Assembly (NCBI GenBank): GCA_963718915.1
Contig: CAVRAI010000003.1
Coordinates: 330,001-362,000 of the forward strand
Length of the DNA stretch: 32,000 nt
DNA from: an uncultured Chloroflexia bacterium
GTDB lineage: Bacteria > Chloroflexota > Ktedonobacteria > Ktedonobacterales > JADMIN01
Direction: 5' to 3'
The translations under genes and the position numbers were made by a program. The notes beneath the pieces were generated by a model. The model was not told where the DNA came from and did not search any database. It worked only from the letters and a program-made list of their open reading frames with translations. Below are positions 1-14,946 of this stretch, piece after piece (position 1 is the stretch's first letter; each line of letters begins with the position of its first letter).

Positions 1-752
<752 letters not shown>

Positions 753-760
753 TCACAAAG

Positions 761-789
761 AGTATAGCATCGCTATTACACTAATGCAA
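761..789 (-). promoter_or_regulatory. Sigma70-type promoter for the pyrR leader
   Basis: Minus strand reads TTGCAT (comp. 784-789), a 17-nt spacer, then TATACT (comp. 761-766). The predicted TSS is about 3 nt before the PyrR-binding hairpin. Confidence 0.55.
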
Positions 790-853
790 AGAAGCGGTAC
801 CTATAAGCAGTGACTATACGAATATACACTTCGGTTGCTATTGTTATGTCTAC

Positions 854-882
854 TTGACGCGGTGAGTGAGGCTGGCTATAGT
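854..882 (+). promoter_or_regulatory. Sigma70-type promoter for the aroH-tyrA leader
   Basis: TTGACG (854-859), a 17-nt spacer, then TATAGT (877-882), in an AT-richer divergent intergenic region. Confidence 0.55.
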
Positions 883-888
883 GCTGGC

Positions 889-981
889 ATGATGAGATAT
901 CCCTCACAATATGCGGATAGCTATTACCGGCGGCCCTCTGGCACGGTGGATCGGGGTATTCCCGTGCGCGCGATGAGGTGA
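889..981 (+). CDS. Candidate 30-aa Tyr-rich leader peptide ([30 protein letters not shown]), possibly leaderless
   Basis: The ATG at 889 is 7 nt downstream of the -10 hexamer. Tyr codons start at 898, 910, 922 and 925. The ORF lies between the promoter and the intrinsic terminator, upstream of tyrosine-branch genes. There is no homology support. Confidence 0.35.
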
Positions 982-1017
982 TAGATCGCCGCAAGGTGTA
1001 ACCGCCAGCCAGAGGGT

Positions 1018-1047
1018 AAGCAGAAGCGAGAGTGCTTCTGCTTTTTT
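1018..1047 (+). terminator. Intrinsic terminator in the aroH leader
   Basis: Perfect 10-bp stem AAGCAGAAGC / GCUUCUGCUU with a 6-nt loop (GAGAGU), running into a U6 tract (1042-1047). Confidence 0.8.
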
Positions 1048-1117
1048 GTTGTCCTCTGCTTCCCTCTCTCCTGTGGGTGAGGGGGTGAGGGGGCGAGGTC
1101 AGGGGGAGTCAATACTG

Positions 1118-1957
1118 ATGGAAAGCTCATCGACCGTGCGCTGCCGGGGACTGCGCGGCGCGACCACCGCCGCCGATAACAGCGCCGAAGCGATTCTCGC
1201 CGCCACCCGCGAGCTACTCGAACGGCTGGTGGCGCGCAATGCCCTCGATGTCGCGGATATCGCCAGCGCGTTCTTCACCGTGACCGACGACCTCGACGCC
1301 GCCTATCCCGCCCTGGCCGCGCGCGAGCTGGGCTGGAACGAGGTGGCGCTGCTCTGCGCCCGCGAGATCCCCGTCCCCGGTAGCATCTCTCGCTGCATCC
1401 GCGTGCTGCTCCACATCAACACGACGAAGGGACAGGGCGACCTGCGCCACGTCTATCTGCGCGAGGCGGTGGCGCTGCGGCCTGGCTTCGCCGACACTGC
1501 CACCACCAGCTACTATGCCCGCCGTAGAGCGCGTCGCCATCATCGGTCTGGGGCTAATGGGCGCGTCGCTCGGCCTGGCGCTACGGGAGCGGGGAGAGGC
1601 GCGGCAGGTAGTGGGATTCGACGTCGATCCTGGCGTGACAGCGCGCGCCCGCGAACGCGGAGCGATCGACGTTGCCTGCTCATCGGTCGCGGAGGCGGTG
1701 ACTGGCAGCAATCTGGTAGTGCTGGCCACGCCGCTGCTGGCAATGCGCGATCTGCTGGCGGAGATGGCGCCACTGCTGGCCGAGACGACGATTGTCACCG
1801 ACCTTGGCAGCGTCAAGGCGGAGGTCGTCTCATGGGCGGAGTCGCTCGCTGCCCGCCCCCCGCCAGTTCGTTGGGGGACATCCGATGGCGGGCAGCGAGC
1901 AATCAGGCATCGAGGCAGCTACTGGCGCTCTATATCACGACTGCGTCTGGTGTCTGA
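1118..1957 (+). CDS. aroH: AroH-class chorismate mutase. The conserved domain ends near 1500, and the frame has no stop codon until 1957.
   Basis: [123 protein letters not shown] matches the AroH family pattern (IRGIRGATT ... CIRV ... RHVYL..A..LRP). RBS GGGGGAG lies 9 nt upstream of ATG 1118. The tail after about residue 130 is Arg/Gly-rich off-frame read-through of tyrA. Confidence 0.8.
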
Positions 1958-2397
1958 CGCCCACCGATGACACATCCGTCGCCGCGCTCCACCGCGTCGC
2001 ACAAGTAGTAAAGGCAGTAGGCGGCCACCCGCGCATCATGCCGCCGGAGCAGCACGACCGGGCGGTCGCGCTGGCGAGCCACCTGCCACTACTGGCGGCA
2101 AGCGCCCTCACACTGACCGTCGCGCAGTCGCCGGATGCCACGGATGCCACGGACGCCCTTACGCTGGCGGCGGGTGGATTCCGCGATACGACGCGCATCG
2201 CCTCGGGCAGCCCGCGTATGGCACGCGACATCTGCCTGACCAACGGCGCCCCGCTTATCGCCTCACTGGACGCTTATATCACGACGCTGCAAGCGCTCCG
2301 ACAGCAGATCGCCGAGCAGAACCCAACGCTTGAAGGCACATTCACCACAGCCAAAGACGCGCGCGACCACTGGGTATCGGGCCAGTCAGAAATGTGA
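1515..2397 (+). pseudogene. tyrA: Prephenate dehydrogenase (TyrA) split by a +1 frame change (real frameshift or single-base assembly error)
   Basis: The N-terminal part in the frame of 1515 reads [17 protein letters not shown]...LVVLATP...[19 protein letters not shown]. The C-terminal part in the frame of 1792 reads [20 protein letters not shown]...PEQHDRAVALASHLPLL. The two halves overlap around a C6 run at 1856-1861. Deleting one C there would give ...[17 protein letters not shown]. Confidence 0.8.
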
Positions 2398-2407
2398 GAA
2401 AATGTTC

Positions 2408-2436
2408 TTGACAGGCGGTTTAGAGCGATGTATCTT
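2408..2436 (+). promoter_or_regulatory. Sigma70-type promoter upstream of the Lrp/AsnC gene
   Basis: TTGACA (2408-2413), a 17-nt spacer, then TATCTT (2431-2436). RBS GGAGGTGAGG precedes ATG 2460. Confidence 0.5.
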
Positions 2437-2459
2437 CTTCTCAGTGGAGGTGAGGCCGA

Positions 2460-2948
2460 ATGATTGACGATATTGATGGCAAAATACTGTCCATTCTTCA
2501 AAACGACGCGCGAACATCCAACGCCGAGATTGCGCGGCGGCTGGCCATGGCGCCCTCCGCGATTTTAGAGCGCATCCGCAAACTCGAGACGCGCGGCCTC
2601 ATCGAGGGCTACGAGGCGCGGCTGAATCCCAAGGCGCTCGAAGTGGGGCTGCTCGCCTTCATCTACGTCCGCGCCGAAGAGCGTATTGGCTCGCGCGAGA
2701 TCGGCGACGAGCTGGCAGCGTTTCCCGAGGTGCAGGAAGTGCATCACATCGCCGGAGAAGACTGTTATCTCTTAAAAGTGCGCGTTGCCGACACCAACGC
2801 ACTGAGCGACCTGCTCCGCCAGCGGCTTGGCCCCATAGACGCCATCCGCTCCACGCGCACCACCATCGTGCTCTCGACGATCAAAGAGACAGCGCAGATC
2901 CCGCTGCCATCATCACTGCAGAAAGAAGACCTTTCCGATGCTGGCTAG
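2460..2948 (+). CDS. Lrp/AsnC family transcriptional regulator
   Basis: MIDDIDGKILSILQNDARTSNAEIARRLAMAPSAILERIRKLETRGLIEGY... is an N-terminal wHTH followed by a C-terminal RAM/AsnC-type ligand domain (VQEVHHIAGEDCYLLKVRVADTNAL). Confidence 0.9.
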   Translation: MIDDIDGKILSILQNDARTSNAEIARRLAMAPSAILERIRKLETRGLIEGYEARLNPKALEVGLLAFIYVRAEERIGSREIGDELAAFPEVQEVHHIAGEDCYLLKVRVADTNALSDLLRQRLGPIDAIRSTRTTIVLSTIKETAQIPLPSSLQKEDLSDAG

Positions 2949-3912
2949 TCGCACAAGTCCCCGCACACAGATCATTCTCGCGTTCACCTCCGTCTATATC
3001 ATCTGGGGTTCCACCTATCTCGCCATTCGCTTCGCTGTCGCGACGATGCCGCCGTTTCTGATGGCGGGTGTGCGCTTCCTGATTGCGGGCGCGATCCTCT
3101 ATCTCTGGATGCGCTTGCGCGGGGGCGAGCGGCCCAAACTGGTCCACTGGCGTTCCGCGTTGATCGTCGGCGGGCTGTTGCTACTGGGAGGCAATGGCAT
3201 CGTCTCATGGGCAGAGCAGCAGGTGCCTTCGGGGCTGGCGGCGCTGCTGATTGCGGCGGTTCCACTCTGGATGGCGCTCTTCGACTGGCTGCGGCCTGGC
3301 GGCGTGCGTCCAACCGGTCTGACGGTGGTCGGACTGGTGATTGGCTTCGCGGGCGTCATCCTGCTGGCCAGTCAGGCCGAATCATCGGGCGCCGGTCCGC
3401 ACCTTATTGGCATCCTGGCATTGCTGGTGGCGGCCATAAGCTGGGCGATTGGCTCGCTCTACGCCCGGAGCGCGCCCTTCCCCGGAACGCAACTGCTGGG
3501 CACCGGGATGGAGATGCTGGCCGGTGGCGCACTGCTGATCGTGATCGCCACCGCGACCGGCGAGTGGAGCCAGGTCCACCTCGAAGCCATCTCGCTCAAG
3601 TCGGCGCTCGCTCTCGCCTTTCTGATCATCTTCGGCTCGCTGATCGCGTTCTCGGCGTATGTCTGGCTGCTGCATCATGTCTCGGCGGCGCGCGTCTCAA
3701 CCTACGCCTATGTCAACCCGGTCGTGGCGGTCTTCCTTGGCTGGGCATTCGCCAGCGAGGCGGTTACCTGGGTCACGATAGCTTCCGCCGCGATCATCGT
3801 CTCCGCCGTCGCGCTGATCACTGTCGCAAGGACGCGGAGCGCGAAGCCACAGGTCGTGGCGGTCGCGGAGAACGATTCCCCGACGCCACAGGAGGCGATA
3901 GTGCGACGGTAG
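2938..3912 (+). CDS. EamA/DMT-superfamily transporter (drug/metabolite exporter)
   Basis: A protein of about 10 TM segments with two EamA-like halves (FTSVYIIWGSTYLAIRFAV...; ...IFGSLIAFSAYVWLLHHVSAARVSTYAYVNPVVAVFLGW). Its start overlaps the Lrp stop by 11 nt. Confidence 0.85.
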   Translation: MLASRTSPRTQIILAFTSVYIIWGSTYLAIRFAVATMPPFLMAGVRFLIAGAILYLWMRLRGGERPKLVHWRSALIVGGLLLLGGNGIVSWAEQQVPSGLAALLIAAVPLWMALFDWLRPGGVRPTGLTVVGLVIGFAGVILLASQAESSGAGPHLIGILALLVAAISWAIGSLYARSAPFPGTQLLGTGMEMLAGGALLIVIATATGEWSQVHLEAISLKSALALAFLIIFGSLIAFSAYVWLLHHVSAARVSTYAYVNPVVAVFLGWAFASEAVTWVTIASAAIIVSAVALITVARTRSAKPQVVAVAENDSPTPQEAIVRR

Positions 3913-4060
3913 ACGTTCGTGGTAATCCAGCGTCGCGGCATGAATGAGGTTTTCACTATTTATTCCGAACACCGTACGTCGTGGCGGGCGAGGCAGGCCG
4001 TGGCATAAACGCTACGGCGAATTTTCCTCTCTCACGCCCTGGCCCATTCGCCGGAGGAGC

Positions 4061-4242
4061 GCGGGCGGTTAGAAACCGCGCCTGAGAGGCCTCGCGTGCT
4101 GCGCACGCTCCGCCACAAAACCCGCCGTCGCGGGTTCCTCCCGACTCGACCAGCGTAGTTAGGATTGGGGGCGAGATCTGGGCAGTCCGCGCAGGCGGAC
4201 TTCGTGGCCGCAGGCCCTTCAGGCGCGGTTTTAACCGCCCGC
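4061..4242. repeat. 182-bp inverted-repeat element packed with GC-rich hairpins (REP/MITE-like or structured RNA)
   Basis: Arm 4061-4092 pairs with arm 4212-4242 at 29 positions (one 1-nt bulge, two adjacent mismatches). Internal 6-bp hairpins: GCGTGC-tgc-GCACGC (4094-4108), ACCCGC-cgtc-GCGGGT (4120-4135), GTCCGC-gcag-GCGGAC (4185-4200). Confidence 0.6.
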
Positions 4243-4366
4243 TATGACATAGCCGCGCTATTGCGCATGCCCGCCGCGCCCTCATGTTGCCTCAGATGGC
4301 CTCGTAATCGTGCTATACTTCCCAGAGAGAAGCTATGGGGTAATCACTGGCTTCCGGGAGGCGCAT

Positions 4367-5257
4367 ATGTATGGCGAGATCGCGGCGGCGCTGGCGCGTG
4401 GCGAGGCTGGCACGCTTCTGACGGTGGTAAAGATCTATGGCGCGGCCCCCTGTGCGCCGGGAACCAAGATGTTCGTCCGCGACGATGGCAGCGCGCTCGG
4501 CACATTTGGCGGACGGCAGACCGATGCCCGCGCACGCGCCGATGGACTCGAGGCGCTGGCCTCCGGGCAGACCACCCTACTGACCTACCATCTCGATCCT
4601 GAGGGCGGCGAGAGCGTCGGCAGTTGCGGCGCGACCCTGGAAATCTTTGTCGAGCCGATACGCCCGGAGCCACGGCTCATCATCGCCGGGTCCGGCTATG
4701 TGGCCCAGGCGCTGACACGGCTAACCACCGCTATCGGCTGGCGCGTCAGCCTGCTGGACGACCGCTCCGAATTCGTGCAGTCGGCAGCGCTGCCCGACAA
4801 TGTCACACTCACCGTTGGCGACATCCCCGAACTGCTGCCCACCCTCGCGCCCGACACGATGACGGCGCTGGTGATCGTCACGCGCGGCCACAAGGTTGAC
4901 CAGGACGCGCTCGAAGCGGCGCTCGGCACGGGGGCTGGCTACGTCGGTATGATCGGCAGCCCCGGCAAGGTGCGCACGATCTTCCGCAAGCTGCTGCGCA
5001 AAGGCATCGCGTCCGAGTCGCTGGCGCAGGTACACGCGCCGATTGGGCTGGACCTGGGCGCGCGGACACCTGACGAAATCGCGCTCAGCATCGCCGCCGA
5101 ACTGCTGGCATGGCGGCGCGGCGGCAGCGGCGAACCCCTCCGCGAGCATGCGGCCATCCTGGCGAAGGTGCAGACCGAATCAGAGAGCGAAGCCGAGACT
5201 GAGGTGGATACAGAGCCAGAAACTGAGCCAGAAACTGAGCCAGCCGTTCAGGGATAG
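4367..5257 (+). CDS. xdhC: XdhC/CoxI-family molybdoenzyme maturation (accessory) protein
   Basis: N-terminal XdhC_CoxI-like region (GEAGTLLTVVKIYGAAPCAPGTKMFVRDDGSALGTFGG) and a Rossmann-like C-terminal part (RLIIAGSGYVAQAL...VIVTRGHKVDQDAL...YVGMIGSPGKV...HAPIGLDLGARTPDEIALSIAAEL). RBS GGGAGG precedes ATG 4367; the ORF is open from 4310. It has an acidic TEPETEPETEP tail. Confidence 0.85.
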   Translation: MYGEIAAALARGEAGTLLTVVKIYGAAPCAPGTKMFVRDDGSALGTFGGRQTDARARADGLEALASGQTTLLTYHLDPEGGESVGSCGATLEIFVEPIRPEPRLIIAGSGYVAQALTRLTTAIGWRVSLLDDRSEFVQSAALPDNVTLTVGDIPELLPTLAPDTMTALVIVTRGHKVDQDALEAALGTGAGYVGMIGSPGKVRTIFRKLLRKGIASESLAQVHAPIGLDLGARTPDEIALSIAAELLAWRRGGSGEPLREHAAILAKVQTESESEAETEVDTEPETEPETEPAVQG

Positions 5258-5283
5258 GCAGCCACGAACCGAAGCATCTACGG

Positions 5284-7245
5284 CTACGGCGTTCGCGAGC
5301 GGGACGGGCGCTGGATCCAGACGGCAATCGTAAACATGAGTCCCAGTAGCGCCAGGATGGGCATAATCGCCCATGACGCCCATACCAGCACGCCAGAGCT
5401 ATCAATGCGAAGCGGGTACCAGCAGAAGAGCCAATTGAGCAACGCCAGCGCCACAATGCCACCAGGCAGCGCATACAGGGTAAGCCAGAGGCCCGCTTCT
5501 TTGTCGAGAATTGAAGGTATGCTAAAAGCCAGGACAATCAGGCCAAAGAGCGCGCCACAAATAAGTCCGCTTACCTCCCAGCCAAAGAAACCAACAGTGA
5601 GGCCGATAACTGCGCCAGCAAGCCCCACAAGCGCGCCTATCCCCAGCGTTGAGGCCAGGGACCCAAAGAAATACTTGGCGGCACGGCCATCGACTACCTG
5701 AGATATGATCATGATCACCTCACCAACGGCAATGAAGAGCAGCCCGTACGCCGCGCCGAAAAGCCCGCCAAATGCCCAGGGAGTATTCGTGGTCAGTTGC
5801 AATGTTCCCAGATACGGAAAGTCGTAGGCGCGGATTGCTGGCGCGGCGGGCAAGACGTTGGCAATGACAAACGTCACCGTGGTAGCAACGACGATTGCGC
5901 AAAGCGCCATGGCAGCCATGTCGAACGGGCTGGCGACACGACGATATCCCAGATAATAGCCCGCGACCGAGAAGAGGGCGACAAGCACGGCAATCACGAT
6001 GGCCGATTCTATCAGTTTTTCCAGGCCACTCGCGCTCACAACGTTTGACGCAATGGGACGCCCCGTCGCCACCAGGCCGCCGAGCACACCAATCGCGCTC
6101 AGCATAACAAGGATGTAGGGCAAAAGCGCTACTGGATACCGTGTTGAAAACTTCTCTTTGCTATAAACCGCCCGCGCCTCCTGTTTCTCGGTAGCCGCCT
6201 CCTGTTTCTCCCTTTCCGCTACTGCCGCTTCGTATGACTGCGGCACGCTCAGGTGAAGCTGCGAGGCGAGGTTCTCGGGGTCACCATAAAAAGGCGCTTC
6301 GGCCCATAAATCGCGCAACTTTTGGCGGGCGAGGTCAAGCTCGTGGCGTTTGACCCGATCACCTACGATGGCATACATATCCTCGTATTTCTGGTTATGT
6401 GTGGCCACGCCAAGCGCATCCTTCGCGCCACCATTTTTGGAATCCAGGACAAGAATTGCCTGCCAGTCGGTAATCTCGCGTCGCCATTCGCCGTTCTGTC
6501 TCGCCCGGCGAGCATCGGCGCGCAGGTCGTCAATGCGCATGTCCTGGAGCCTTTGCCGTAATTGCTTCAGGTCTCTGGCGACACGACCATTGAGATAGTC
6601 TGGACTCTCATCCACGATCTGCTGAAAGAATATCGCGGCCTGCTCAAGCTCTCCCCGCACATAGGCGGCATCTCCTTTATCGTAGAGTTCTTTGAGGCTC
6701 AGGGCGGGAGAAGGCGGCAGTGGTTGCGGCGGAACGAGTTCTGGCTCCGTCATCGCGGGCGCACCGGACGAACCGCCTGGGTGCGGCGCTTCAATCGGTC
6801 TTGATTGATGGGACAGGCTTGTCGAATCAATGGGCGTCACTGGCGGCGCCAAGCGCGCAAGGGTATTGACAAGGTTTCTCAGCGCATCATCATACGATCC
6901 CTGAAAATCCACCCATTGAATGTCATTTAAGTCGAATGGGACTTTCTCAACAGGCTTATAGAGCACAGGAATGACTACCAGACCCAGCGTATTGAGCGCA
7001 TAGCGATACTCAAGCTTGACGTTCCGCGAAGCGACGGCGTCGGGCGAGAGGATAACAACCACGACCTGACTGCGCTCAATCGCGCCCTGTATCGCATCTT
7101 GAAAATCCTGGCCGCCTTCGAGCTTTCGCCGATCAACCCACGTATCGAATCCACGCGCTTTCAGGCTCACGTCAAGTCTGTCGGCAAACGATGTGTCTTT
7201 ACGGGAATAGCTGATAAAGACGCGGATTCGTGTCTGCTCTCTCAC
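5284..7245 (-). CDS. TIR domain protein with a helical/TPR-like linker and a C-terminal polytopic membrane domain
   Basis: The N-terminus reads RIRVFISYSRKDTSFADRLDVSLKARGFDTWVDRRKLEGGQDF...VVVVILSPDAVASRNVKLEYRYAL, a TIR_2-type pattern that includes the conserved Glu position. The middle region is helical, e.g. LKELYDKGDAAYVRGELEQAAIFFQQIVDESPDY. The last ~300 aa contain roughly 8-9 hydrophobic segments. I place the start at GTG 7245 (GAGGG 7 nt upstream); the ORF is open to TTG 7326. Confidence 0.8.
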   Translation of the reverse strand: MREQTRIRVFISYSRKDTSFADRLDVSLKARGFDTWVDRRKLEGGQDFQDAIQGAIERSQVVVVILSPDAVASRNVKLEYRYALNTLGLVVIPVLYKPVEKVPFDLNDIQWVDFQGSYDDALRNLVNTLARLAPPVTPIDSTSLSHQSRPIEAPHPGGSSGAPAMTEPELVPPQPLPPSPALSLKELYDKGDAAYVRGELEQAAIFFQQIVDESPDYLNGRVARDLKQLRQRLQDMRIDDLRADARRARQNGEWRREITDWQAILVLDSKNGGAKDALGVATHNQKYEDMYAIVGDRVKRHELDLARQKLRDLWAEAPFYGDPENLASQLHLSVPQSYEAAVAEREKQEAATEKQEARAVYSKEKFSTRYPVALLPYILVMLSAIGVLGGLVATGRPIASNVVSASGLEKLIESAIVIAVLVALFSVAGYYLGYRRVASPFDMAAMALCAIVVATTVTFVIANVLPAAPAIRAYDFPYLGTLQLTTNTPWAFGGLFGAAYGLLFIAVGEVIMIISQVVDGRAAKYFFGSLASTLGIGALVGLAGAVIGLTVGFFGWEVSGLICGALFGLIVLAFSIPSILDKEAGLWLTLYALPGGIVALALLNWLFCWYPLRIDSSGVLVWASWAIMPILALLGLMFTIAVWIQRPSRSRTP

Positions 7246-7436
7246 GACTTTGCCCTCAATTGCATCTGTAACCAAATCGAACACGATGTAGCAGTGGACG
7301 GTAGTTTTGAAGTGTTTTCGACGCAAGAACTCCTCGATGAAGATACTGAACTAGCCGCTAGTCTAGCATGCAGCCAAACTTACGGCAAGCACGAGAAAGC
7401 TGGCTTCTCTGTGGGCGGCCAATGAAGACCCACCGA

Positions 7437-7471
7437 TTTTCACCCTTTTCACCCTTTTCACCCTTTTCGCC
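7437..7471. repeat. 9-bp tandem repeat TTTTCACCC x3 plus a degenerate fourth copy, in a divergent promoter region
   Basis: Perfect copies at 7437-7445, 7446-7454 and 7455-7463, then TTTTCGCC. It lies just upstream of the extended -10 promoter TGtTATACT (7494-7502) of the antiporter gene. Confidence 0.8.
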
Positions 7472-7545
7472 GATTTTCCGCTCCATAGAGCCATGTTATA
7501 CTGGTTTACATCATGTGTCCGGCGGCGTAGCTGAGGAGGGTTCGG

Positions 7546-8664
7546 GTGGCGAAACAGGCGAGCGGCGGCATCAACATCTCCCAGGCGCTCGGTATGCTGA
7601 CCCGGCGGCAAATCATCACGCTAGGCATCGCCGTCGTGGCAACCGCGCTGGCGGGCATCCTCCATTTCGCGGAGGCAAACGCCGTGCTGACGTTTGTCGT
7701 CGCGGGCGTGGCGCTGGCGACGCTGGCCGCGCTGGTTGGCGACGCCACCGAGCAACTGGGCACGCGGCTCGGCCCCGGCGCGACGGGAGTGCTGCAATCC
7801 GCGCTGGGCAACCTGCCCGAACTCTTCGTCGGCATCTTCGCCCTGCGCGCTGGACTGGTGGATGTGGTGCAGAGCGCGCTGATTGGCTCGATTCTGGGCA
7901 ATAGCGTGCTGGTGCTGGGGCTGGCCTTCCTGGTGGGTGGCTTGCGTCACGGCGAGCAGAAATTCTCCTCGGATCCGCCGCGCATGATGGTCACACTCAC
8001 CTTGCTCGCGGTGGCGGCGCTGGCCATCCCGACGTTGGCATCCCTGCTACATACTCCTGCCCAGCCGCACAGCGAGGGGTTGAGCATCGCCTGCGCCATT
8101 ATCTTGCTGCTCGTCTTCCTCGCCAGCATCCCCGTCTCGCTGGCGGGTGGTCCGGCCAGTCTGCCTGGAGAACCGCCAGAGGCGGTCGAGGCCACCAGCC
8201 ACATCTGGCCGGTCTGGCTCGCCGTCGCCATCCTCGTCGTCGCGGCGCTGGGCGCGGCGTTCGTCTCCGAATGGTTTATCACGGCGCTGGAGCCGACGAT
8301 AGCGGTCCTCCATCTCTCGCAGACGTTCACTGGTCTGGTGATCGTCGCCCTCGCGGGCAACGCCGTCGAGCATGTCGTCGGCATCCAGTTGATGGCGGCG
8401 AACAAGCCCGATTATGCCATCAGCGTCATCATGAACAGCTCGCTCCAGATCGCGCTCTTTCTGATCCCCGTGCTGGTGCTGCTCAGCCTGGTGCTCGGCG
8501 GCGCATACCTGACGCTGGTGGTCTCGCCGCTGCTGCTGGTCGCGCTGGGGCTGGCTGCGCTGCTGGGCACGATCATCATCTACGACGGCAAATCCACGTG
8601 GCTGGAGGGCCTCGCGCTCGTCGGCCTCTACTGCATCATCGCCATCTCGTTCTGGTGGGGCTAG
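7546..8664 (+). CDS. cax: Ca2+/H+ antiporter (CaCA/CAX family)
   Basis: Two alpha-repeat signatures: GNLPELFVGIFALRAGLVDVVQSALIGSILGNSVLVLG and GNAVEHVVGIQLMAANKPDYAISVIMNSSLQIALFLIP. About 11 TM segments. GTG start with GAGGAGGG 5 nt upstream. Confidence 0.9.
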   Translation: MAKQASGGINISQALGMLTRRQIITLGIAVVATALAGILHFAEANAVLTFVVAGVALATLAALVGDATEQLGTRLGPGATGVLQSALGNLPELFVGIFALRAGLVDVVQSALIGSILGNSVLVLGLAFLVGGLRHGEQKFSSDPPRMMVTLTLLAVAALAIPTLASLLHTPAQPHSEGLSIACAIILLLVFLASIPVSLAGGPASLPGEPPEAVEATSHIWPVWLAVAILVVAALGAAFVSEWFITALEPTIAVLHLSQTFTGLVIVALAGNAVEHVVGIQLMAANKPDYAISVIMNSSLQIALFLIPVLVLLSLVLGGAYLTLVVSPLLLVALGLAALLGTIIIYDGKSTWLEGLALVGLYCIIAISFWWG

Positions 8665-8847
8665 AGCAGTTAGACTGAACTCGTCGCTGGCCGTCTCTAA
8701 TCTGCACACGCCATCTCCCCTACACTGACGCCGCCGATGGCTATCAGCACGCACGCGCATGCGCTCAATACACCATCAACGCTACGGTTTCTGCCTGTCT
8801 CTGTGTCATCGCGCGATACCCTCGATCACCTTCAATTACGCTAACTA

Positions 8848-8876
8848 TTGACAATCACTGATAATTCATGATAATA
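8848..8876 (+). promoter_or_regulatory. Sigma70-type promoter of the XRE gene with overlapping TGATAA repeats
   Basis: TTGACA (8848-8853), a 17-nt spacer, then ATAATA (8871-8876). TGATAA hexamers start at 8859, 8869 and 8883, the last within the perfect palindrome TGATAAcTTATCA (8883-8895). Confidence 0.5.
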
Positions 8877-8996
8877 AATTGGTGATAACTTATCAGCTCT
8901 CGTGACACTTCATGAAAAGAAAATAGCAACATATTGCGATAAGCTATGATAGAAAGGGGATTACTCATGATTGCTACTGGATGAAGAGAGAGTGTT

Positions 8997-9224
8997 ATGC
9001 CAACTCCAAAGAGCCGCATCTATCTTCCATACTTGCAGGCATGGCGACTCCATGCGCTGTTGACTCAGGACCAACTAGCGGAGGCGTCAGGCGTCGGGAA
9101 GGCCACGGTGGTACGTGCCGAGGGAAATAGCCTTGTCAACGCGCTCACGGCAGCGCGAATCGCCAGAGCATTGAACATCACCCTAAAGCAATTGGAGATG
9201 ACAGAGCCAGAGGGCGGCGAGTAA
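8997..9224 (+). CDS. XRE-family helix-turn-helix transcriptional regulator (phage repressor-like)
   Basis: LTQDQLAEASGVGKATVVRAEGNSLVNALTAARIARALNITLKQL is a typical HTH_3/XRE motif in a 75-aa protein. Confidence 0.85.
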   Translation: MPTPKSRIYLPYLQAWRLHALLTQDQLAEASGVGKATVVRAEGNSLVNALTAARIARALNITLKQLEMTEPEGGE

Positions 9225-9283: not shown

Positions 9284-10180
9284 GTGACACACCCCCCTAT
9301 GGGAAAGGTCGAAATCATGGGCGATGACACCGGGCAGGCGTTAAAGCCAGTGGAGCAGGATACTATCATGTTCTACGGCCATGAGCTAGTCGCCGTGCGC
9401 CTGGCAGATGGGCGGATCGCGGCGGTACTCCGCTGGCTCTTTGAGAGTCTGAATCTGGAGCGTAGAGGCCAGATGCAGCGCATCGAACGCAAGACAGCGT
9501 TGCGCAAGGGTTTGATTAATGTGGAAGTGGACACGCCCGGCGGCCCACAAATTATGTCCGCCCTGACGTTACAGGTATTGCCCGGCTACCTCTTCACAAT
9601 TGACGAAAGCCGCGTCAAAGAGGAAGCCCGCGCCGATGTGATTCTGTTCCAAGAGGAATGCGTTGCGGCGCTCGCCGAGCATTTCACCCGCAAGCATCCA
9701 CCAGCCCTCCCGTCGGCAACAGATGCCACAGCGGCAACGGTCATCATCGAGCAGATCGCCGACTTAACCGGTGTTATCAACCTATTGCGCGAACATTTGG
9801 AGATGCTGTTGGTGTTGCCCAGCCAGGTGGCCGAACTCTCGGTAGAGGTCAGTGAGACACGGGTATTGGTCGAGTCACTAGCAACGCGGCAAGACGCCAC
9901 GGAAACGCACCTGGCAGCAGTCGACGCGCGCACCCAACGCCTGACACCAGCGCATGCGCGGGCGGTACAGGAGATGGTGAATCGTATGGTGCGCGAGACA
10001 AGACACAGCGCGACGCCATTCACCTATGCCATCATCTACGGCAAGTTGAAGACACGCTTTCAGGCAGGCAGCTACAATGAGATCGCAGATAGTCGCTTCG
10101 ACGATCTGATGGCATGGCTACGTGAGGCGCTCAACAACGCGACGAGCGGAGAAGCGCCTGAGCAGGGGAGTCTGTTCTGA
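9284..10180 (+). CDS. Phage antirepressor-like protein (P22_AR_N-like N-terminal domain plus ORF6C-like C-terminal domain)
   Basis: IMFYGHELVAVRLADGRIAAVLRWLFESLNLERRGQMQRI...GGPQIMSALTLQVLPGYLFTIDESRVKEEARADVILFQEECVAALAEHF fits the P22 antirepressor N-terminal pattern (F.G..L...G...V......LGL....Q...I......G.Q.M..L.L..LPGWLF.I....V....R..L..YQ.EC). The C-terminus (LTPAHARAVQEMVNRMV...YGKLKTRFQAGSYNEIADSRFDDLMAWL) is ORF6C-like. The start is uncertain: GTG 9284, ATG 9299 or ATG 9317. Confidence 0.7.
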   Translation: MTHPPMGKVEIMGDDTGQALKPVEQDTIMFYGHELVAVRLADGRIAAVLRWLFESLNLERRGQMQRIERKTALRKGLINVEVDTPGGPQIMSALTLQVLPGYLFTIDESRVKEEARADVILFQEECVAALAEHFTRKHPPALPSATDATAATVIIEQIADLTGVINLLREHLEMLLVLPSQVAELSVEVSETRVLVESLATRQDATETHLAAVDARTQRLTPAHARAVQEMVNRMVRETRHSATPFTYAIIYGKLKTRFQAGSYNEIADSRFDDLMAWLREALNNATSGEAPEQGSLF

Positions 10181-10300: not shown

Positions 10301-11089
10301 TCAGTTCGCTCCCAGATCAGCTTTCTGTTCGGCTTCCTGCTCCACCTGCTCCATCTTCTTCACATCCGCTTTCGCCTTTTCAAGCAACGTTTGCTCCGCT
10401 TTCATGCTGAGCGTCCGGCGATAATAGCGCACAGCCCAGGCCATCATGATGACGAAGGCCACAAAAGCCGCCGCCGCCGACTGCCAGATACCGAGCGTGG
10501 CGATCCGCGTACCAGGAAAGTTGGCGATGAGCAATTCGTCAGTCATGAAGGCGCTTCCTCCGAAGCAGAGCGCGCCGATAAACCCCACCATGTAGCAAAC
10601 AACGAATGTTGCGCTGCCTCGGCGATCACCTTTCGGTATCCCCTTGAGCCGCCAGCGAAAGACATACTGGACAGCAGGTATCTGCTCCTCGAACTCCTGA
10701 ATATAGAACTCTTTGATGACATTCATCGCGATCAGACTCTCGCGGAACGCCTGTCGCAGCCGAATCAGCAGCACAAAGAAGGCGACGCCCGCCACCCCCG
10801 CCGCGAGCATCACAACAGCGGCAATCGGCTGGATGAAGCTGCGCGCCCCACCCAGCGGATAGACTGCGCCAAAGGCCGAGCCGAGGATACCGACCACCAG
10901 CAGATACATGTTGAACATGCGCGCGCGATCTTCCATCGCCTGATATGCCGTCGTCGAGGCGTAGTTGAACTCCTCCAGCAGCATGCTCTCAATCTTCAGC
11001 CCGCTGTCGCGCTTCCCGCCACCGTCTCCATCGTCCTTACGGTACGATGGAGTTCGCTGCGCTGGCGGGTTGGTCATATCCATCGGCAT
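10301..11089 (-). CDS. Uncharacterised 4-TM membrane protein with a charged coiled-coil-like tail; paralogue of the C-terminal half of the adjacent NUDIX protein
   Basis: LKIESMLLEEFNYASTTAYQAMEDRARMFNMYL...LIRLRQAFRESLIAMNVIKEFYIQEFEEQIPAVQYVFRWR aligns with LKLESIMLAEFNYASSTAYQALEDRGRMFNFYL...IVRIRQAFNDSLLTMNVIKDRYIGEFKASIPDVEKIFRWR in the upstream gene. RBS GAGGAG lies 8 nt before ATG 11089, and a 45-nt gap separates it from the upstream gene. Confidence 0.75.
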   Translation of the reverse strand: MPMDMTNPPAQRTPSYRKDDGDGGGKRDSGLKIESMLLEEFNYASTTAYQAMEDRARMFNMYLLVVGILGSAFGAVYPLGGARSFIQPIAAVVMLAAGVAGVAFFVLLIRLRQAFRESLIAMNVIKEFYIQEFEEQIPAVQYVFRWRLKGIPKGDRRGSATFVVCYMVGFIGALCFGGSAFMTDELLIANFPGTRIATLGIWQSAAAAFVAFVIMMAWAVRYYRRTLSMKAEQTLLEKAKADVKKMEQVEQEAEQKADLGAN

Positions 11090-11134: not shown

Positions 11135-12454
11135 CTACGCATCCGTCTTTTCTTTCGCCTGCTTCGCAGCCGCGTCCGCGCCAGTCTTCCGCAGCATCCC
11201 CTCATAGAAAATGGTCTGAATCAGCCACGCCAGCGCCAACGCGCCTCCGCCAATAAGGTAGGTGACCAGATTTGTGGAGAGATGCAGGGTATCCGTGTTC
11301 GCATCACTCGTGATAAGTTCCGTGACGACAACGGCAGCAAGGCCGATTGCGACACTATCAATGAATGACACACCAAAACATACGAGAAAGGTCAGGCTGC
11401 CAAAGCGCCGACCAGAAGGCATGGTCATTGTGCGCCAGCGAAATATCTTCTCGACATCGGGAATGCTCGCCTTGAATTCGCCGATGTAACGGTCTTTAAT
11501 GACGTTCATCGTCAGCAGGCTATCGTTGAATGCCTGGCGAATGCGAACGATCTTGAAGAAGAAGATGATACCGATGAACCCCGCCAGCACGAGAAGCGCA
11601 AGGGCGAGGTATTCGGAGTGATTGACTTTGCCGCCAAACCCATAGAGCGCGCCCAGACCGCTCGCCAGCACGCCAGTGATGCCAAGGTAGAAGTTAAACA
11701 TGCGCCCGCGATCCTCCAGCGCCTGATACGCCGTCGAACTGGCGTAGTTGAACTCGGCGAGCATGATGCTTTCGAGTTTCAGCGTCTGGTCGGTATTGGT
11801 TGCCGGGTCATGCTGACCAGCGGTGGGCGGTTGCATCGGATACTGGTTACTAGGAGAAAATGGCATTGCGGCTCCTCCAGGTATATCAGAAGATTGCGCC
11901 AGCGCATTCCGCGCCAGCAACAGTCCGAGCACAGTTTTGCTGTCGTCAATCTCGCCTGACTGGCATCGCGCCAGCGCGTCACTCAATGACACCCAGGCGA
12001 CGCCACTAATCTCCGTGGGATCTTGCGGACCAGATTGGCCCGGCGCCGACCGCAGATCGGTCGCGAGGTAGAGCGAAATCGTCTCGTTGGTGAATCCCGG
12101 CGAGGTATAGGTGCGCACCAGGAAGCGCATTGCCCCGGCGTCGTACCCGGTTTCCTCGCGCAGCTCGCGGCGAGCGGTCTGCTCTGGCTGGCCTGCCTCG
12201 GCAGGATTTATCAGCCCGGCGGGAAGCTCCCAGGTGCTGCGGTCGATCGCTGGACGCTCCTGCTGCACCAGCGCCACCAGTTGCGCGTCCGCATGCGCGG
12301 GATCGGCCCGCAGCGCGACAATCGCGACGGCGCCGGGATGCTCGACCACGTCGAACTGCGTGCGGCCACCACTGGGCGCGGGAAGTGTCCGTCGTAAGAC
12401 CCGTATCAGCGAGCCGCGATAGACCTCTTCGTCGGAGTATTGCTGTGGCTGCAT
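11135..12454 (-). CDS. NUDIX hydrolase (ADP-ribose pyrophosphatase/NudF-like) fused to an uncharacterised 4-TM membrane module
   Basis: The N-terminal half reads YSDEEVYRGSLIRVLRRTLPAPSGGRTQFDVVEHPGAVAIVAL...WELPAGLINPAEAGQPEQTARRELREETGYDA, with the NUDIX box core RELREETGY intact. The C-terminal ~220 aa are paralogous to 10301..11089. I chose ATG 12454 as the start (GGGAGGGGG upstream); the ORF is open to 12565. Confidence 0.8.
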   Translation of the reverse strand: MQPQQYSDEEVYRGSLIRVLRRTLPAPSGGRTQFDVVEHPGAVAIVALRADPAHADAQLVALVQQERPAIDRSTWELPAGLINPAEAGQPEQTARRELREETGYDAGAMRFLVRTYTSPGFTNETISLYLATDLRSAPGQSGPQDPTEISGVAWVSLSDALARCQSGEIDDSKTVLGLLLARNALAQSSDIPGGAAMPFSPSNQYPMQPPTAGQHDPATNTDQTLKLESIMLAEFNYASSTAYQALEDRGRMFNFYLGITGVLASGLGALYGFGGKVNHSEYLALALLVLAGFIGIIFFFKIVRIRQAFNDSLLTMNVIKDRYIGEFKASIPDVEKIFRWRTMTMPSGRRFGSLTFLVCFGVSFIDSVAIGLAAVVVTELITSDANTDTLHLSTNLVTYLIGGGALALAWLIQTIFYEGMLRKTGADAAAKQAKEKTDA

Positions 12455-12654
12455 AGCATTCCCCCTCCCTCGGCGGCAGGTTGCACGCCAAGTGGTTCGC
12501 TTGTTGTTGTAGTCGAGGTGCAGCATAGCATGTTTGGCCGCCTGCGTGAAGCCCCTGGCCCGCAAGTGGTTAAATGTGGAGGACTATGGCGCCCTAGCAA
12601 ACGGCCTTGAGAGCGCTGGGAGACAGGCAAAATTGGCGCACTATTCAGGAGCTT

Positions 12655-14946
12655 ATGACAGAGGGCATCACTTCGGCAAAAGAGACCAGGCGCCTGGAGC
12701 AATCCAGTGACGCGAAGGCGAGAACTCGTTCCTGGCTCGCGCGGTTCACCTGGGCGCGCTATCCAGAGTTTTGGATCATCGTGCTGGTCGCGGCGTTTCT
12801 GCGGCTGTGGCAGCTAGACCACTCACAGTGGCTCGACGACCAGGCGCAACTGCTGACGATGGCCCGCGACGCCTGGCTGCATGGCGCGCTGCCCATCACC
12901 GGGATTCGCTCCTCGATTGGCACGCTCAACCCGCCGCTCAGCGTCTACATGCTGATGCCGTTCTTCCTCTTCACCAAAAGCCCGCTGCCCGCGCTGATCG
13001 GGCTGGCGCTCTGGAATATCTTCGGCGTCGCGCTCTGCTATATCTTCGCGCTACGCTTTTTCTCACGAAGGGCCGCGTTCTGCTCAGCGCTCATCTTTGC
13101 CTGTTGTGGCGCGGCCATCAACTATAGCCGCTTCATCTGGCAACAGAACTACCTGCCGCCGCTGCTGCTGCTCTGGGCGTTCACGCTCTACGCCGGGGTC
13201 GTGCGCGAGCGGCGCAACTGGCTGGCGCTCCATCTGCTGCTGCTGGTCATGATTATCTCGCTACACCCCACCGGGCTGACGCTGCTGGCCGTCACCGCCG
13301 TCGCGCTGCTCATCGCGCCACACTGGCCGACCCGCCGCGACACACTGCTGGGCGTTGGCCTGGTCATTTTGCTGCTGCTGCCCACCATCCTCTGGGAACT
13401 GATGAGCGGCTTCTCTGACGCACAACTCTTACGCCAGTTCACCCAGCAGTCGCCCGTCTTCAATAGCGATGTCTTTCACGCGCTCTACCATCTGCTCGGC
13501 GCGCCCGCCTATCCTGGCCCCGGAACCAATACGCCCTATCCCGCCATCCTCGACACCGCCCTCTACGCCCGCATTGGCGGCATGAACATTGCCATTCAGA
13601 ATGCGGCGATGGCGCTCTATATCACCTGCTACCTGGTGCTGTCGATCCTGGCGCTGGCCCCGTTGCGGCGCGTGCGCGTTGGGGGAGTTGCGACTGGCTG
13701 GCGGCGCGTGTGGGGATGGCTGGTGGCGCTGCGGGCGGCGCTCCAGGCGGATGCGCGCTGGCGTTCCTATCTCCTGCTCTGGGTCTGGCTGACCATTCCG
13801 CCGCTGACGATGCTGCGCCACGGCAAGACAGTGCAGCCGCACTATCTGTTCATCCTTTATCCTGCCTTCTTCCTCTCCATCGGCGTCGCGGTTGACGCCA
13901 TCATTCGCGAGGCCCCGCGCGTGCTATCCGCGCTTCACATCCAGCTACGCCAGGCACAGCGGGCCGTCGCCGGGGGAGCGCTGGCGGTCGTGCTGCTGGT
14001 GGCGCTGGGACAGGGTGCGCAGTCCGCCCTCTTTATCGCGGCGGTCGGCGGCAATCAGGTCAGCACGGTCAACTTTGGCTACCCGCTGAATCAGCTCCTC
14101 GCCGCGGATAGCGCGCTCGCGACGATCCAGCGAGAACAACACGCGGGCAGCATCTTCGTCAGTATGCCCTCGCGCTACACCGCCTCGGCGATGGACTCCA
14201 CGCTCATCCGCGAGGAGGCCGACCGCACTGGTGTCACGGGCGACTGCCTCGCGCTACCCGACGCGCAGGCTGGCCCGACGCTGGTGGTCTCGACACGGGC
14301 GGCCAGCCCGCAGGGACAATTGCTGGCGACGCTGCCCAACGCTACGCGCGTTCAGGATATTGCTATGCCAGGGGATGAGCCGCTGGTCATCTATCGCCTG
14401 AGCGGGCCAACGCCGCTGCTATCGGATGAGCGCGCACTGCCCTCCGCCACCTGGCAGGATGGAAGTGGCGATACACTGCGTCTGGTGGCTGGCGCGCGCG
14501 TAGCGCCTGGCGTTATCCGGCTGCGCTGGGTCGTCGGAAATTGGACAATTCCTCATGATGTGAATGGCGAAGACACCACCGCGATGCCGCAATTCGAGAT
14601 ACAACTTCGGCGTGCCGGGCAGGGCGACGCGCAGGCGAACGCTCCGGTGGCTCGGGCCACCTGCCAGCCGACGCGCTTGCAGCCGGGCGAAACGCTCTTC
14701 ACCTGGGTCTCGACCGCATGGAACGCCAACGGAACCAGCCTCACCGCCGTCGCGCCGCCGCTGCCAGCCTCGCTGCTGACGTTATCGGCGCTGCACGGGG
14801 AGCCGTCACTCTGGCAGGGTCGGTTTGGGCCGCTGCGGGTATTCTCGGCGGCGCCGGTGGGGGGGCCACTCACGCCGATGTCCACCACGAGCGCGAACGG
14901 CGTCTATCAACTACCCGACGCCCTTACGAGGAGCAGCGCGCCGTGA
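12655..14946 (+). CDS. GT-C fold glycosyltransferase, family 39/83-like (ArnT/PMT-type), with a large extracytoplasmic C-terminal domain
   Basis: WARYPEFWIIVLVAAFLRLWQLDHSQWLDDQAQLLTMARDAWLHGALPITGIRSSIGTLNPPLSVYMLMPF...ALCYIFALRFFSRRAAFCSALIFACCGAAINYSRFIWQQNYLPPLLL is a typical ArnT/PMT_2 N-terminal membrane core. It is paralogous to 16438..18957. The ORF is open from TTG 12607. Confidence 0.75.
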   Translation: MTEGITSAKETRRLEQSSDAKARTRSWLARFTWARYPEFWIIVLVAAFLRLWQLDHSQWLDDQAQLLTMARDAWLHGALPITGIRSSIGTLNPPLSVYMLMPFFLFTKSPLPALIGLALWNIFGVALCYIFALRFFSRRAAFCSALIFACCGAAINYSRFIWQQNYLPPLLLLWAFTLYAGVVRERRNWLALHLLLLVMIISLHPTGLTLLAVTAVALLIAPHWPTRRDTLLGVGLVILLLLPTILWELMSGFSDAQLLRQFTQQSPVFNSDVFHALYHLLGAPAYPGPGTNTPYPAILDTALYARIGGMNIAIQNAAMALYITCYLVLSILALAPLRRVRVGGVATGWRRVWGWLVALRAALQADARWRSYLLLWVWLTIPPLTMLRHGKTVQPHYLFILYPAFFLSIGVAVDAIIREAPRVLSALHIQLRQAQRAVAGGALAVVLLVALGQGAQSALFIAAVGGNQVSTVNFGYPLNQLLAADSALATIQREQHAGSIFVSMPSRYTASAMDSTLIREEADRTGVTGDCLALPDAQAGPTLVVSTRAASPQGQLLATLPNATRVQDIAMPGDEPLVIYRLSGPTPLLSDERALPSATWQDGSGDTLRLVAGARVAPGVIRLRWVVGNWTIPHDVNGEDTTAMPQFEIQLRRAGQGDAQANAPVARATCQPTRLQPGETLFTWVSTAWNANGTSLTAVAPPLPASLLTLSALHGEPSLWQGRFGPLRVFSAAPVGGPLTPMSTTSANGVYQLPDALTRSSAP

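Follow-up and report, generated by a model that had tools for sequence, protein, structure and literature searches.

The locus described here lies in a 32,000-nucleotide stretch of DNA (the window) from contig CAVRAI010000003.1 of an uncultured Ktedonobacterales bacterium (Chloroflexota). On its minus strand, at 5284..7245, a complete gene encodes a 653-residue protein that joins a TIR domain to a TPR-like helical domain and eight transmembrane helices. The gene is convergent with xdhC (4310-5257, plus strand) and divergent from the Na_Ca_ex/CaX gene cax (7546-8664, plus strand), with the presumed promoter site in the sequence that separates it from cax (7246..7545). An earlier note, made from the sequence alone, had described this arrangement correctly and placed the protein outside the described TIR systems, with an implied link to defence.

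The maximal open reading frame (ORF) on the minus strand spans 5284..7326 and would encode 680 residues from a TTG start. We take the GTG at 7245 as the start codon, because a GAGG lies 8 nt upstream of it and 8 residues precede the first TIR strand, as in distant homologues. TTG 7275 stays a candidate alternative start. The stop codon occupies 5284-5286. From the N- to the C-terminus, the protein comprises the TIR domain (6841..7245, residues 1-135), a Pro-rich linker (6706..6840, residues 136-180), a TPR-like all-helical domain (6211..6705, residues 181-345), a short, charged K/E-rich helical stalk (6142..6210, residues 346-368) and an orphan polytopic membrane domain (5287..6141, residues 369-653), all encoded on the minus strand. 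The linker, the helical repeat-like region and the eight or nine hydrophobic helices of the earlier note were thus all recovered, the last as eight transmembrane helices. Two orthologues share 78% and 72% identity with the protein across its full length. The gene is genuine, and it encodes a membrane-embedded protein with a cytoplasmic TIR head.

Matches to PADLOC, NCBIfam and PHROGs are limited to the TIR portion, and PADLOC 2.0 has no model that covers the protein past this domain. Together with a membrane domain that lacks relatives outside its own family, this agrees with the earlier placement of the architecture outside described systems. Scans with Pfam, PADLOC and NCBIfam gave no match to an NTPase domain, and there is no room for a central NTPase because the linker is only 45 residues long. 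In base composition, the TIR gene has the lowest GC content (0.569) and the lowest GC content at third codon positions (GC3; 0.625) among the 19 ORFs of the window; the flanking xdhC and cax have GC3 values of 0.775 and 0.866.

The TIR head and its putative active site

The N-terminal domain, already called a clear TIR in the earlier note, exceeds the curated cut-offs of two Pfam families and belongs to the TIR superfamily. TIR_2 matches residues 9-126 with an E-value of 2.2e-28 (99.6 bits, cut-off 28), and TIR matches with 6e-12 (46.1 bits, cut-off 21.3). The PADLOC TIR models matched are those for pAgo, SAVED-TIR and ThsB. A search of the PDB sequences with a profile of the TIR domains of 16 family members retrieved SPARTA TIR-APAZ (9.5e-12) and the SARM1 TIR (7e-11) as its top matches, followed by Hydra TRR2, Cat1 and AbTir. 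TLRs and plant TIRs ranked lower. The characterised relatives that best match the domain, namely SPARTA TIR-APAZ, SARM1, AbTir and Cat1, all cleave NAD+.

In the profile alignment, Glu79 (codon 7009..7011, minus strand; motif S-x-x-V-x-x-E) stands opposite the Glu of SARM1 'WVHKE' and the Glu of TIR-APAZ 'GVLKE', which are the catalytic residues E642 and E77, respectively. The protein therefore has a Glu at the position that defines a catalytic TIR by sequence, as the earlier note had claimed, and this residue is invariant in both family alignments, A1 and A3 (19 and 16 sequences). The BB-loop region WVDRRKLEGGQD (7105..7140, minus strand; residues 36-47) aligns with FIDVEKLEAGK of SARM1. Here W36, V37, D38 and E43 are invariant and G45 is almost so, and by this alignment the loop is SARM1-like. 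Hence the check suggested alongside the earlier note, an alignment with characterised TIR NADases, finds both the catalytic Glu and the BB-loop in comparison with SARM1 and SPARTA. Judged by its sequence, the TIR head is most likely an NAD+ glycohydrolase.

The TPR-like and membrane domains and their relatives

An AlphaFold2 model of residues 165-350, computed from a 20-sequence alignment, is all-helical with a mean predicted local distance difference test (pLDDT) score of 93.8. It contains seven main helices, one of which is 34 residues long and breaks up the repeat array. Foldseek matched this domain exclusively to TPR proteins in the PDB with a probability of ~1, but with E-values of at least 0.017 and TM-scores of ~0.25. 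Pfam TPR detects a single repeat, at residues 186-217, under its cut-off (19.8 vs 32.7), and similarly weak, sub-threshold matches occur in 12 of 20 family members. On the basis of the model and these matches, the middle domain is best described as TPR-like.

Close to its end, the TPR-like domain carries the signature L-W-x-x-A-P-[YF]-Y-G-D-P. The linker in front of it ends in a family-conserved motif, EPxLVxPQPxPP (6706-6750, residues ~166-180, alignment A1), which was modelled without secondary structure (pLDDT 67-77). This motif could be a peptide ligand of the TPR groove. The K/E-rich stalk that follows the TPR-like domain is far longer in paralogues such as P0014, P0082 and L017, where it reaches up to ~100 residues.

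A hydropathy scan and an AlphaFold2 model concur in placing eight transmembrane helices within residues 369-643. With the N- and C-termini both inside, 13 Lys and Arg residues would face the cytoplasm and 3 the outside, which argues for this topology and for a cytoplasmic TIR domain. The model (pLDDT 68.6, predicted TM-score 0.63) also shows an outward beta-hairpin between the third and fourth transmembrane helices, in a conserved loop encoded at 5785-5850. Further features of the domain are a cytoplasmic YxLGYRR motif (5938-5955) and a glycine-zipper-like region in transmembrane helices 5 and 6 (5560-5655), all on the minus strand. Helix 5 contains a GxxxGxxxG stretch, and the helices are Gly/Ala-rich overall. 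About seven positions of the domain are invariant or nearly so, among them Y-x-x-G-Y-x-R after helix 2 and the Trp of G-F-F-G-W.

The membrane domain has no Pfam match. A HMMER search with residues 355-653 against 1.84 billion representative proteins returned only six matches, all of this architecture: four are fragments of close orthologues, and the other two, P0082 and P0083, have the identical order of TIR, TPR-like domain, charged helix and transmembrane helices. The structural check suggested alongside the earlier note also yielded no fold match, since the best Foldseek result against the PDB had an E-value of 0.44 and TM-scores did not exceed 0.22. No similarity of sequence or fold thus linked the domain to a described transporter, channel or sensor family. 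An internal duplication was considered and rejected, as the best non-overlapping pair of sub-alignments reached a probability of 21% in hhalign. The low, motif-poor conservation of the domain argues against a substrate-specific transporter; it would suit a role in anchoring or oligomerisation, or a sensor that evolves fast.

The family is small and was found only in Ktedonobacterales-type Chloroflexota. Word-indexed searches with the middle domain, as a single sequence or a profile, yielded almost nothing, and family members came instead from scans of assembled genomes and metagenomes for sequence patterns. The ~20 distant members, with 29-44% identity, stem from metagenome-assembled genomes (MAGs) of Ktedonobacterales or Chloroflexia and from metagenome contigs. 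Identity to the distant members falls from 43-55% in the TIR domain to 32-41% in the TPR-like domain and 17-29% in the membrane domain, the pattern expected if the enzymatic head stays constant while the sensor or anchor that carries it evolves faster. The C-terminal parts vary widely and comprise eight, five to six or two transmembrane helices, a long K/E-rich stalk with transmembrane helices, an FHA domain with a zinc ribbon, or a coiled coil. In the paralogues with FHA or coiled-coil tails, these stand in place of the membrane part while the TIR and TPR-like domains are retained.

The head is exchangeable as well. Scanning metagenome contigs with the middle-domain signature, followed by ORF extraction, located three loci (L020, L021 and L022) in which the TPR-like domain, stalk and transmembrane helices lie behind an N-terminal Hanks-type Ser/Thr kinase. 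Pkinase matches these proteins with E-values of 6e-46 and 6e-44, and the partial kinase domain of L022 with 1.6e-8. The module of the window protein aligns with L022 at 2e-16, in one continuous alignment that runs from the TPR-like domain through the first three transmembrane helices and includes LGYRR, and with L020 at 2e-14. L020 and L021 have only one or two transmembrane helices. This sharing, which the earlier note could not show, recasts the protein as one with exchangeable output domains in place of a one-off fusion. From these alignments, the TPR-like and membrane unit looks like a receptor or anchor module that takes alternative cytoplasmic heads, either TIR or kinase.

Two further observations concern relatives of the family. 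The two-helix tail of L021 matches Pfam Gly-zipper_Omp (4.5e-4) and DUF6861. In a MAG that also encodes a family member, a gene at L004 1013-1876 encodes a membrane-tethered TIR protein in the opposite order, with an N-terminal Transgly_assoc (GlsB/YeaQ-type) transmembrane region, a Pro-rich linker and a C-terminal TIR domain that is 56% identical to that of the window protein.

Genomic contexts of the family

Pfam and PADLOC scans of the neighbouring genes in the window found no cyclase, SAVED, STING, SIR2, Macro, pAgo or STAND NTPase gene. The earlier statement that no cyclase, STING, SAVED, ThsA-like or NTPase partner is adjacent holds accordingly. The gene order runs from EamA and AsnC upstream through XdhC, the TIR gene, CaX, a helix-turn-helix (HTH) gene, an Ant-like gene and NUDIX to PMT_2 glycosyltransferases, and it is shared by the 78% and 72% identical orthologues and by a 97% identical, frameshifted assembly. 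In the latter (L013, contig_103517), which is syntenic, genes including the TIR gene and cax are fragmented; these breaks look like frameshift errors of long-read assembly and not like pseudogenes.

Across eight independent family contexts, the window included, no neighbouring gene is conserved, and there is no conserved partner. In five of the eight, genes of defence systems, of mobile elements or for other TIR proteins lie within ~5 kb. One of them combines an MmeI-type restriction-modification gene, GmrSD, a Rep protein, an excisionase-like HTH protein and an integrase. In the second (L024), the paralogue P0015 adjoins a four-gene operon (1-6516) that encodes a 1403-residue SMC/SbcC-like ATPase, a Bro-N protein and two unknowns, with a HigB toxin gene downstream (8829-9116); the operon is possibly a Lamassu/Wadjet-like defence system. 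The third contains a TIR-DnaJ_C gene and the fourth an adjacent TIR-LGFP gene. In the fifth (L017; 1058-3739, 4734-6515 and 6549-8735), the family member lies between a STAND-like gene for an 893-residue AAA_16 and TPR protein and, 34 bp downstream, a gene for a 728-residue pentapeptide-repeat protein with a C-terminal TIR domain. We regard L017 as a cluster of putative conflict genes. Taken as a set, the five contexts suggest a defence role.

Other features of the window were noted around the locus. Upstream of the TIR gene, the spacer shared with cax contains a perfect 9-bp tandem repeat, TTTTCACCC, in 3.6 copies (7437-7468). The orthologous region of L006 holds only one copy of the unit, so the repeat looks like a strain-specific expansion, and it was rejected as a regulatory feature since it is not conserved at the orthologous locus. 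Promoter and terminator scans gave no more signals than shuffled sequence and were likewise set aside. XdhC has an acidic (TEPE)n tail, encoded by 2.6 copies of a 12-bp tandem repeat, GAGCCAGAAACT, at the 3' end of its gene (5213-5243).

Some 1.7-2 kb from the TIR gene, a small HTH regulator (8997-9224, plus strand) is followed by a homologue of the P22 Ant-like antirepressor (9284-10180, plus strand; Pfam P22_AR_N 5e-21, phrog_524 5e-21). The same pair occupies the equivalent position in L006, and no other phage genes surround it. A prophage location was rejected, as this pair alone is phage-related and neither a tRNA nor any integrase or structural gene lies in the window. Next to it, two genes on the minus strand encode proteins of 262 (10301-11089) and 476 residues (11135-12565) and are kept side by side in L006. 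The larger is a NUDIX protein with a long uncharacterised C-terminal half; its neighbour weakly matches the octameric membrane protein family 8xMP (8e-4). A functional link between the TIR and NUDIX genes through ADP-ribose (ADPR) metabolism was considered and rejected, for they are 4 kb apart, beyond two oppositely oriented genes, and the contexts of distant homologues contain no NUDIX gene. Two or three PMT_2-type glycosyltransferases are grouped at 12.6-19 kb. Several large ORFs (473-657 residues) lack a Pfam match, and a 781-residue protein has N-terminal double zinc-ribbon matches alone; together they lie at 14718-16400, 19995-21416, 25212-27557, 27876-29849 and 29947-31866.

Relation to known TIR systems and candidate roles

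The defining features of Thoeris, of CBASS and Pycsar effectors, of SPARTA and of STAND-type TIR proteins are absent from the window protein. SPARTA TIR-APAZ is the best sequence match in the PDB, along the whole TIR domain including its C-terminal helices and with the Glu aligned, and Aga_TIR-PNTD is the best PADLOC match (8e-21). However, of the 430 positions of that profile only 3-134 are matched, the window protein has no APAZ or PNTD part, and no pAgo gene lies nearby. ThsB models of Thoeris match the TIR domain at 2e-10 and Pfam ThsB_TIR falls just under its cut-off (20.9 vs 21.2), whereas NCBIfam ThcB4 scores 49 against a cut-off of 220 and no SIR2, SLOG or Macro gene occurs in the window or in the homologue loci. 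Similarly, the TIR part alone matches the SAVED_TIR (3e-16) and PycTIR models, with CAP12-PCTIR_TIR below its cut-off, but the protein lacks a SAVED, STING or cNMP-binding domain and no cyclase is encoded nearby. In contrast to STAND or NLR-like TIR proteins (Avs-like, TIR-NTPase-TPR), it has no P-loop NTPase (NACHT, NB-ARC or AAA_16).

In concept, the protein may be closest to SARM1 or to single-gene TIR systems, with a topology that recalls a Toll-like receptor with an enzymatic TIR. SARM1 is an animal NAD+ hydrolase in which the TIR is controlled by a helical-repeat ARM domain and by SAM oligomerisation. Both proteins share the catalytic Glu and a D-x-x-K-L-E-x-G BB-loop (the family profile aligns with the SARM1 TIR at 7e-11), both have a helical-repeat domain in the same polypeptide, and in both activity would be expected to depend on oligomerisation. 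Unlike SARM1, the window protein has its TIR at the N-terminus, in reversed order, lacks ARM and SAM domains and carries an eight-helix membrane domain; beyond the TIR, the two are unrelated in sequence. Single-protein TIR systems with TPR or transmembrane regions protect E. coli from phages in a manner that depends on the catalytic residue (PMC11350192). These systems (TIR-II and others) resemble the window protein in being encoded by one gene, with a TIR that has the catalytic residue, a TPR and/or transmembrane region and no signalling partner. They differ in that the window protein is polytopic, with eight transmembrane helices, and its family is restricted to Ktedonobacterales; outside the TIR, this comparison is one of layout.

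Toll-like receptors and the Dictyostelium protein TirC also hold a TIR at the cytoplasmic face of a membrane anchor. Both are single-pass, whereas the window protein has eight helices and short outward loops only, and the TIRs of Toll-like receptors are adaptors that are coupled to leucine-rich-repeat ectodomains. In TirC, the transmembrane tether restrains an otherwise toxic TIR NADase (PMC13142454). The resemblance is an analogy, with no homology beyond the TIR fold. Also related are the kinase-headed proteins of soil Chloroflexota presented above (L020, L021, L022), so far undescribed, which share a homologous TPR-like domain with its APYYGDP signature and the charged stalk, and in L022 also the first three transmembrane helices with LGYRR, but have a Hanks-type kinase head instead of the TIR. 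According to the Aravind group, TIR, Ser/Thr kinase and FHA domains displace one another at the ends of a shared core in conflict systems of multicellular bacteria (PMC8195603). The swapping of kinase, TIR and FHA domains seen here would agree with this pattern, but may equally suit generic receptor signalling.

TIR NADases such as SARM1, SPARTA, AbTir and TIR-STING need BB-loop-mediated assembly of TIR domains to form the active site. We propose, with confidence about evenly divided for and against, that the window protein is a membrane-tethered, NAD+-cleaving TIR that is switched on by clustering in a conflict or cell-death response. The TPR-like, stalk and membrane module would hold the TIR at the inner face of the membrane, with the heads apart or autoinhibited. 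A cue would then cluster the protein, either by way of the membrane, in or at which it is perceived, or by binding to the TPR-like domain, and the assembled TIR heads would cleave NAD+. The resulting depletion of NAD+ may halt the growth of the cell or hyphal compartment or kill it, in the manner of abortive infection or programmed death. We infer each of these elements, the NADase activity and the activation by clustering as much as the kind of cue and the role in the cell: clustering is suggested because TIR NADases act only when their TIRs pack via the BB-loop, and depletion of NAD+ as the outcome because the nearby genes encode no receptor for a signal made by a TIR.

Several points weigh against this proposal. 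An aligned Glu is required for NADase activity but does not suffice for it, and the residue equivalent to W638 of SARM1 is Asn in the window protein and its closest orthologue, whereas it is Tyr, Trp or Phe in most paralogues. The membrane domain was modelled with only moderate confidence (pLDDT 68.6), so that the missing fold match carries little weight. The locus is vertically inherited in a genus-level group, with housekeeping neighbours (xdhC, cax) in the window and its relatives, and three of the eight contexts, the otherwise housekeeping window among them, contain nothing defence-like. A scan of viral contigs and tblastn against phage genomes found no family relative, and tblastn against plasmids returned TIR-domain matches only, covering ~20% of the query. 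Finally, ordinary transmembrane signalling would explain a module shared with kinases no less well than immunity would. The defence link implied in the earlier note thus remains putative: the five contexts and the lowest GC3 of the window speak for it, and the housekeeping synteny in three related genomes speaks against it.

We consider it rather unlikely that the protein is an ordinary, non-immune transmembrane receptor of Ktedonobacterales, whose module senses an envelope, developmental or nutritional cue and whose TIR provides a signalling output, such as an ADPR-derived second messenger or a local drop in NAD+ that would steer mycelial development or sporulation and not anti-phage defence. 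This explanation would account for the fusion of the module to Hanks-type kinases, which are classical outputs of bacterial signalling, for the conserved synteny, for the paralogues that lie amid metabolic genes, and for the lack of a partner effector and of relatives on the searched phages and plasmids. Yet, to our knowledge, the bacterial TIR enzymes characterised by experiment all act in conflict or abortive infection. Moreover, the family is patchy and highly divergent, swaps its tails and is often clustered with TIR, STAND, restriction-modification or toxin-antitoxin genes, while the TIR gene is compositionally atypical and has no receptor for a TIR product encoded nearby.

The invariance of the TIR Glu and BB-loop, set against a membrane domain that is the least conserved part with its few near-invariant positions, makes it improbable that the membrane domain is itself the effector. 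Here, the Gly-rich helices would oligomerise to form a pore or would damage the membrane in another way, and the TIR would mainly serve oligomerisation or triggering, with or without cleavage of NAD+. The glycine-zipper-like stretch of helix 5, the Gly/Ala-rich helices and the Gly-zipper_Omp match of the short tail of a kinase-headed relative would suit a pore, and transmembrane effectors are common in abortive-infection systems such as CBASS and Pycsar. The replacement of the membrane part by FHA or coiled-coil tails in paralogues with TIR and TPR-like domains would not, and the same module behind a kinase would be odd for a lethal pore. More doubtful still is a non-enzymatic TIR that acts as an adaptor, as in animal TLR/MyD88, and recruits TIR proteins encoded elsewhere in the genome. 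Many TIR proteins are encoded in Ktedonobacterales genomes and the paralogues often adjoin TIR genes, which would permit heterotypic TIR-TIR assemblies, and the Asn in place of the W638 aromatic would be compatible with such a role. The Glu is invariant family-wide, however, and the closest relatives of solved structure, SPARTA and SARM1, are enzymes and not adaptors.

What is already known includes single-gene systems that combine TIR with TPR or with transmembrane regions, and bacterial TIR fusions are extremely diverse. What is new is the orphan eight-helix membrane domain, the specific TPR-like domain and the interchangeability of TIR and kinase heads on the module. Since the membrane half is also fused to kinases, this looks like a small, lineage-restricted, receptor-like family that is new in detail and not in principle. 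If it is merely an ordinary lineage-specific TIR fusion, its value is that of cataloguing another architecture among very many. The signature W-x-x-A-P-Y-Y-G-D-P can be used to find further such proteins in Chloroflexota, and the family would offer a one-gene system for asking how a potentially lethal enzyme is controlled by clustering and by its tether to the membrane.

It is possible, if doubtful, that the TPR-like and polytopic membrane module represents a kind of bacterial receptor not described before, able to control a Ser/Thr kinase in some proteins and a catalytic TIR in others, with NAD+ cleavage or the synthesis of ADPR nucleotides as direct receptor output. The logic of such a protein would parallel that of Toll-like receptors, but in a prokaryote and with an enzymatic TIR, an envelope or extracellular cue being received via the membrane domain and its conserved outward beta-hairpin. 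Bacterial TIR enzymes are usually seen as soluble effectors or signal generators that are switched on by a partner or by a fused soluble sensor. If the TIR head indeed sits on a membrane module on which it is interchangeable with kinases, this would mean that NAD+-cleaving TIRs can be the direct outputs of membrane receptors.

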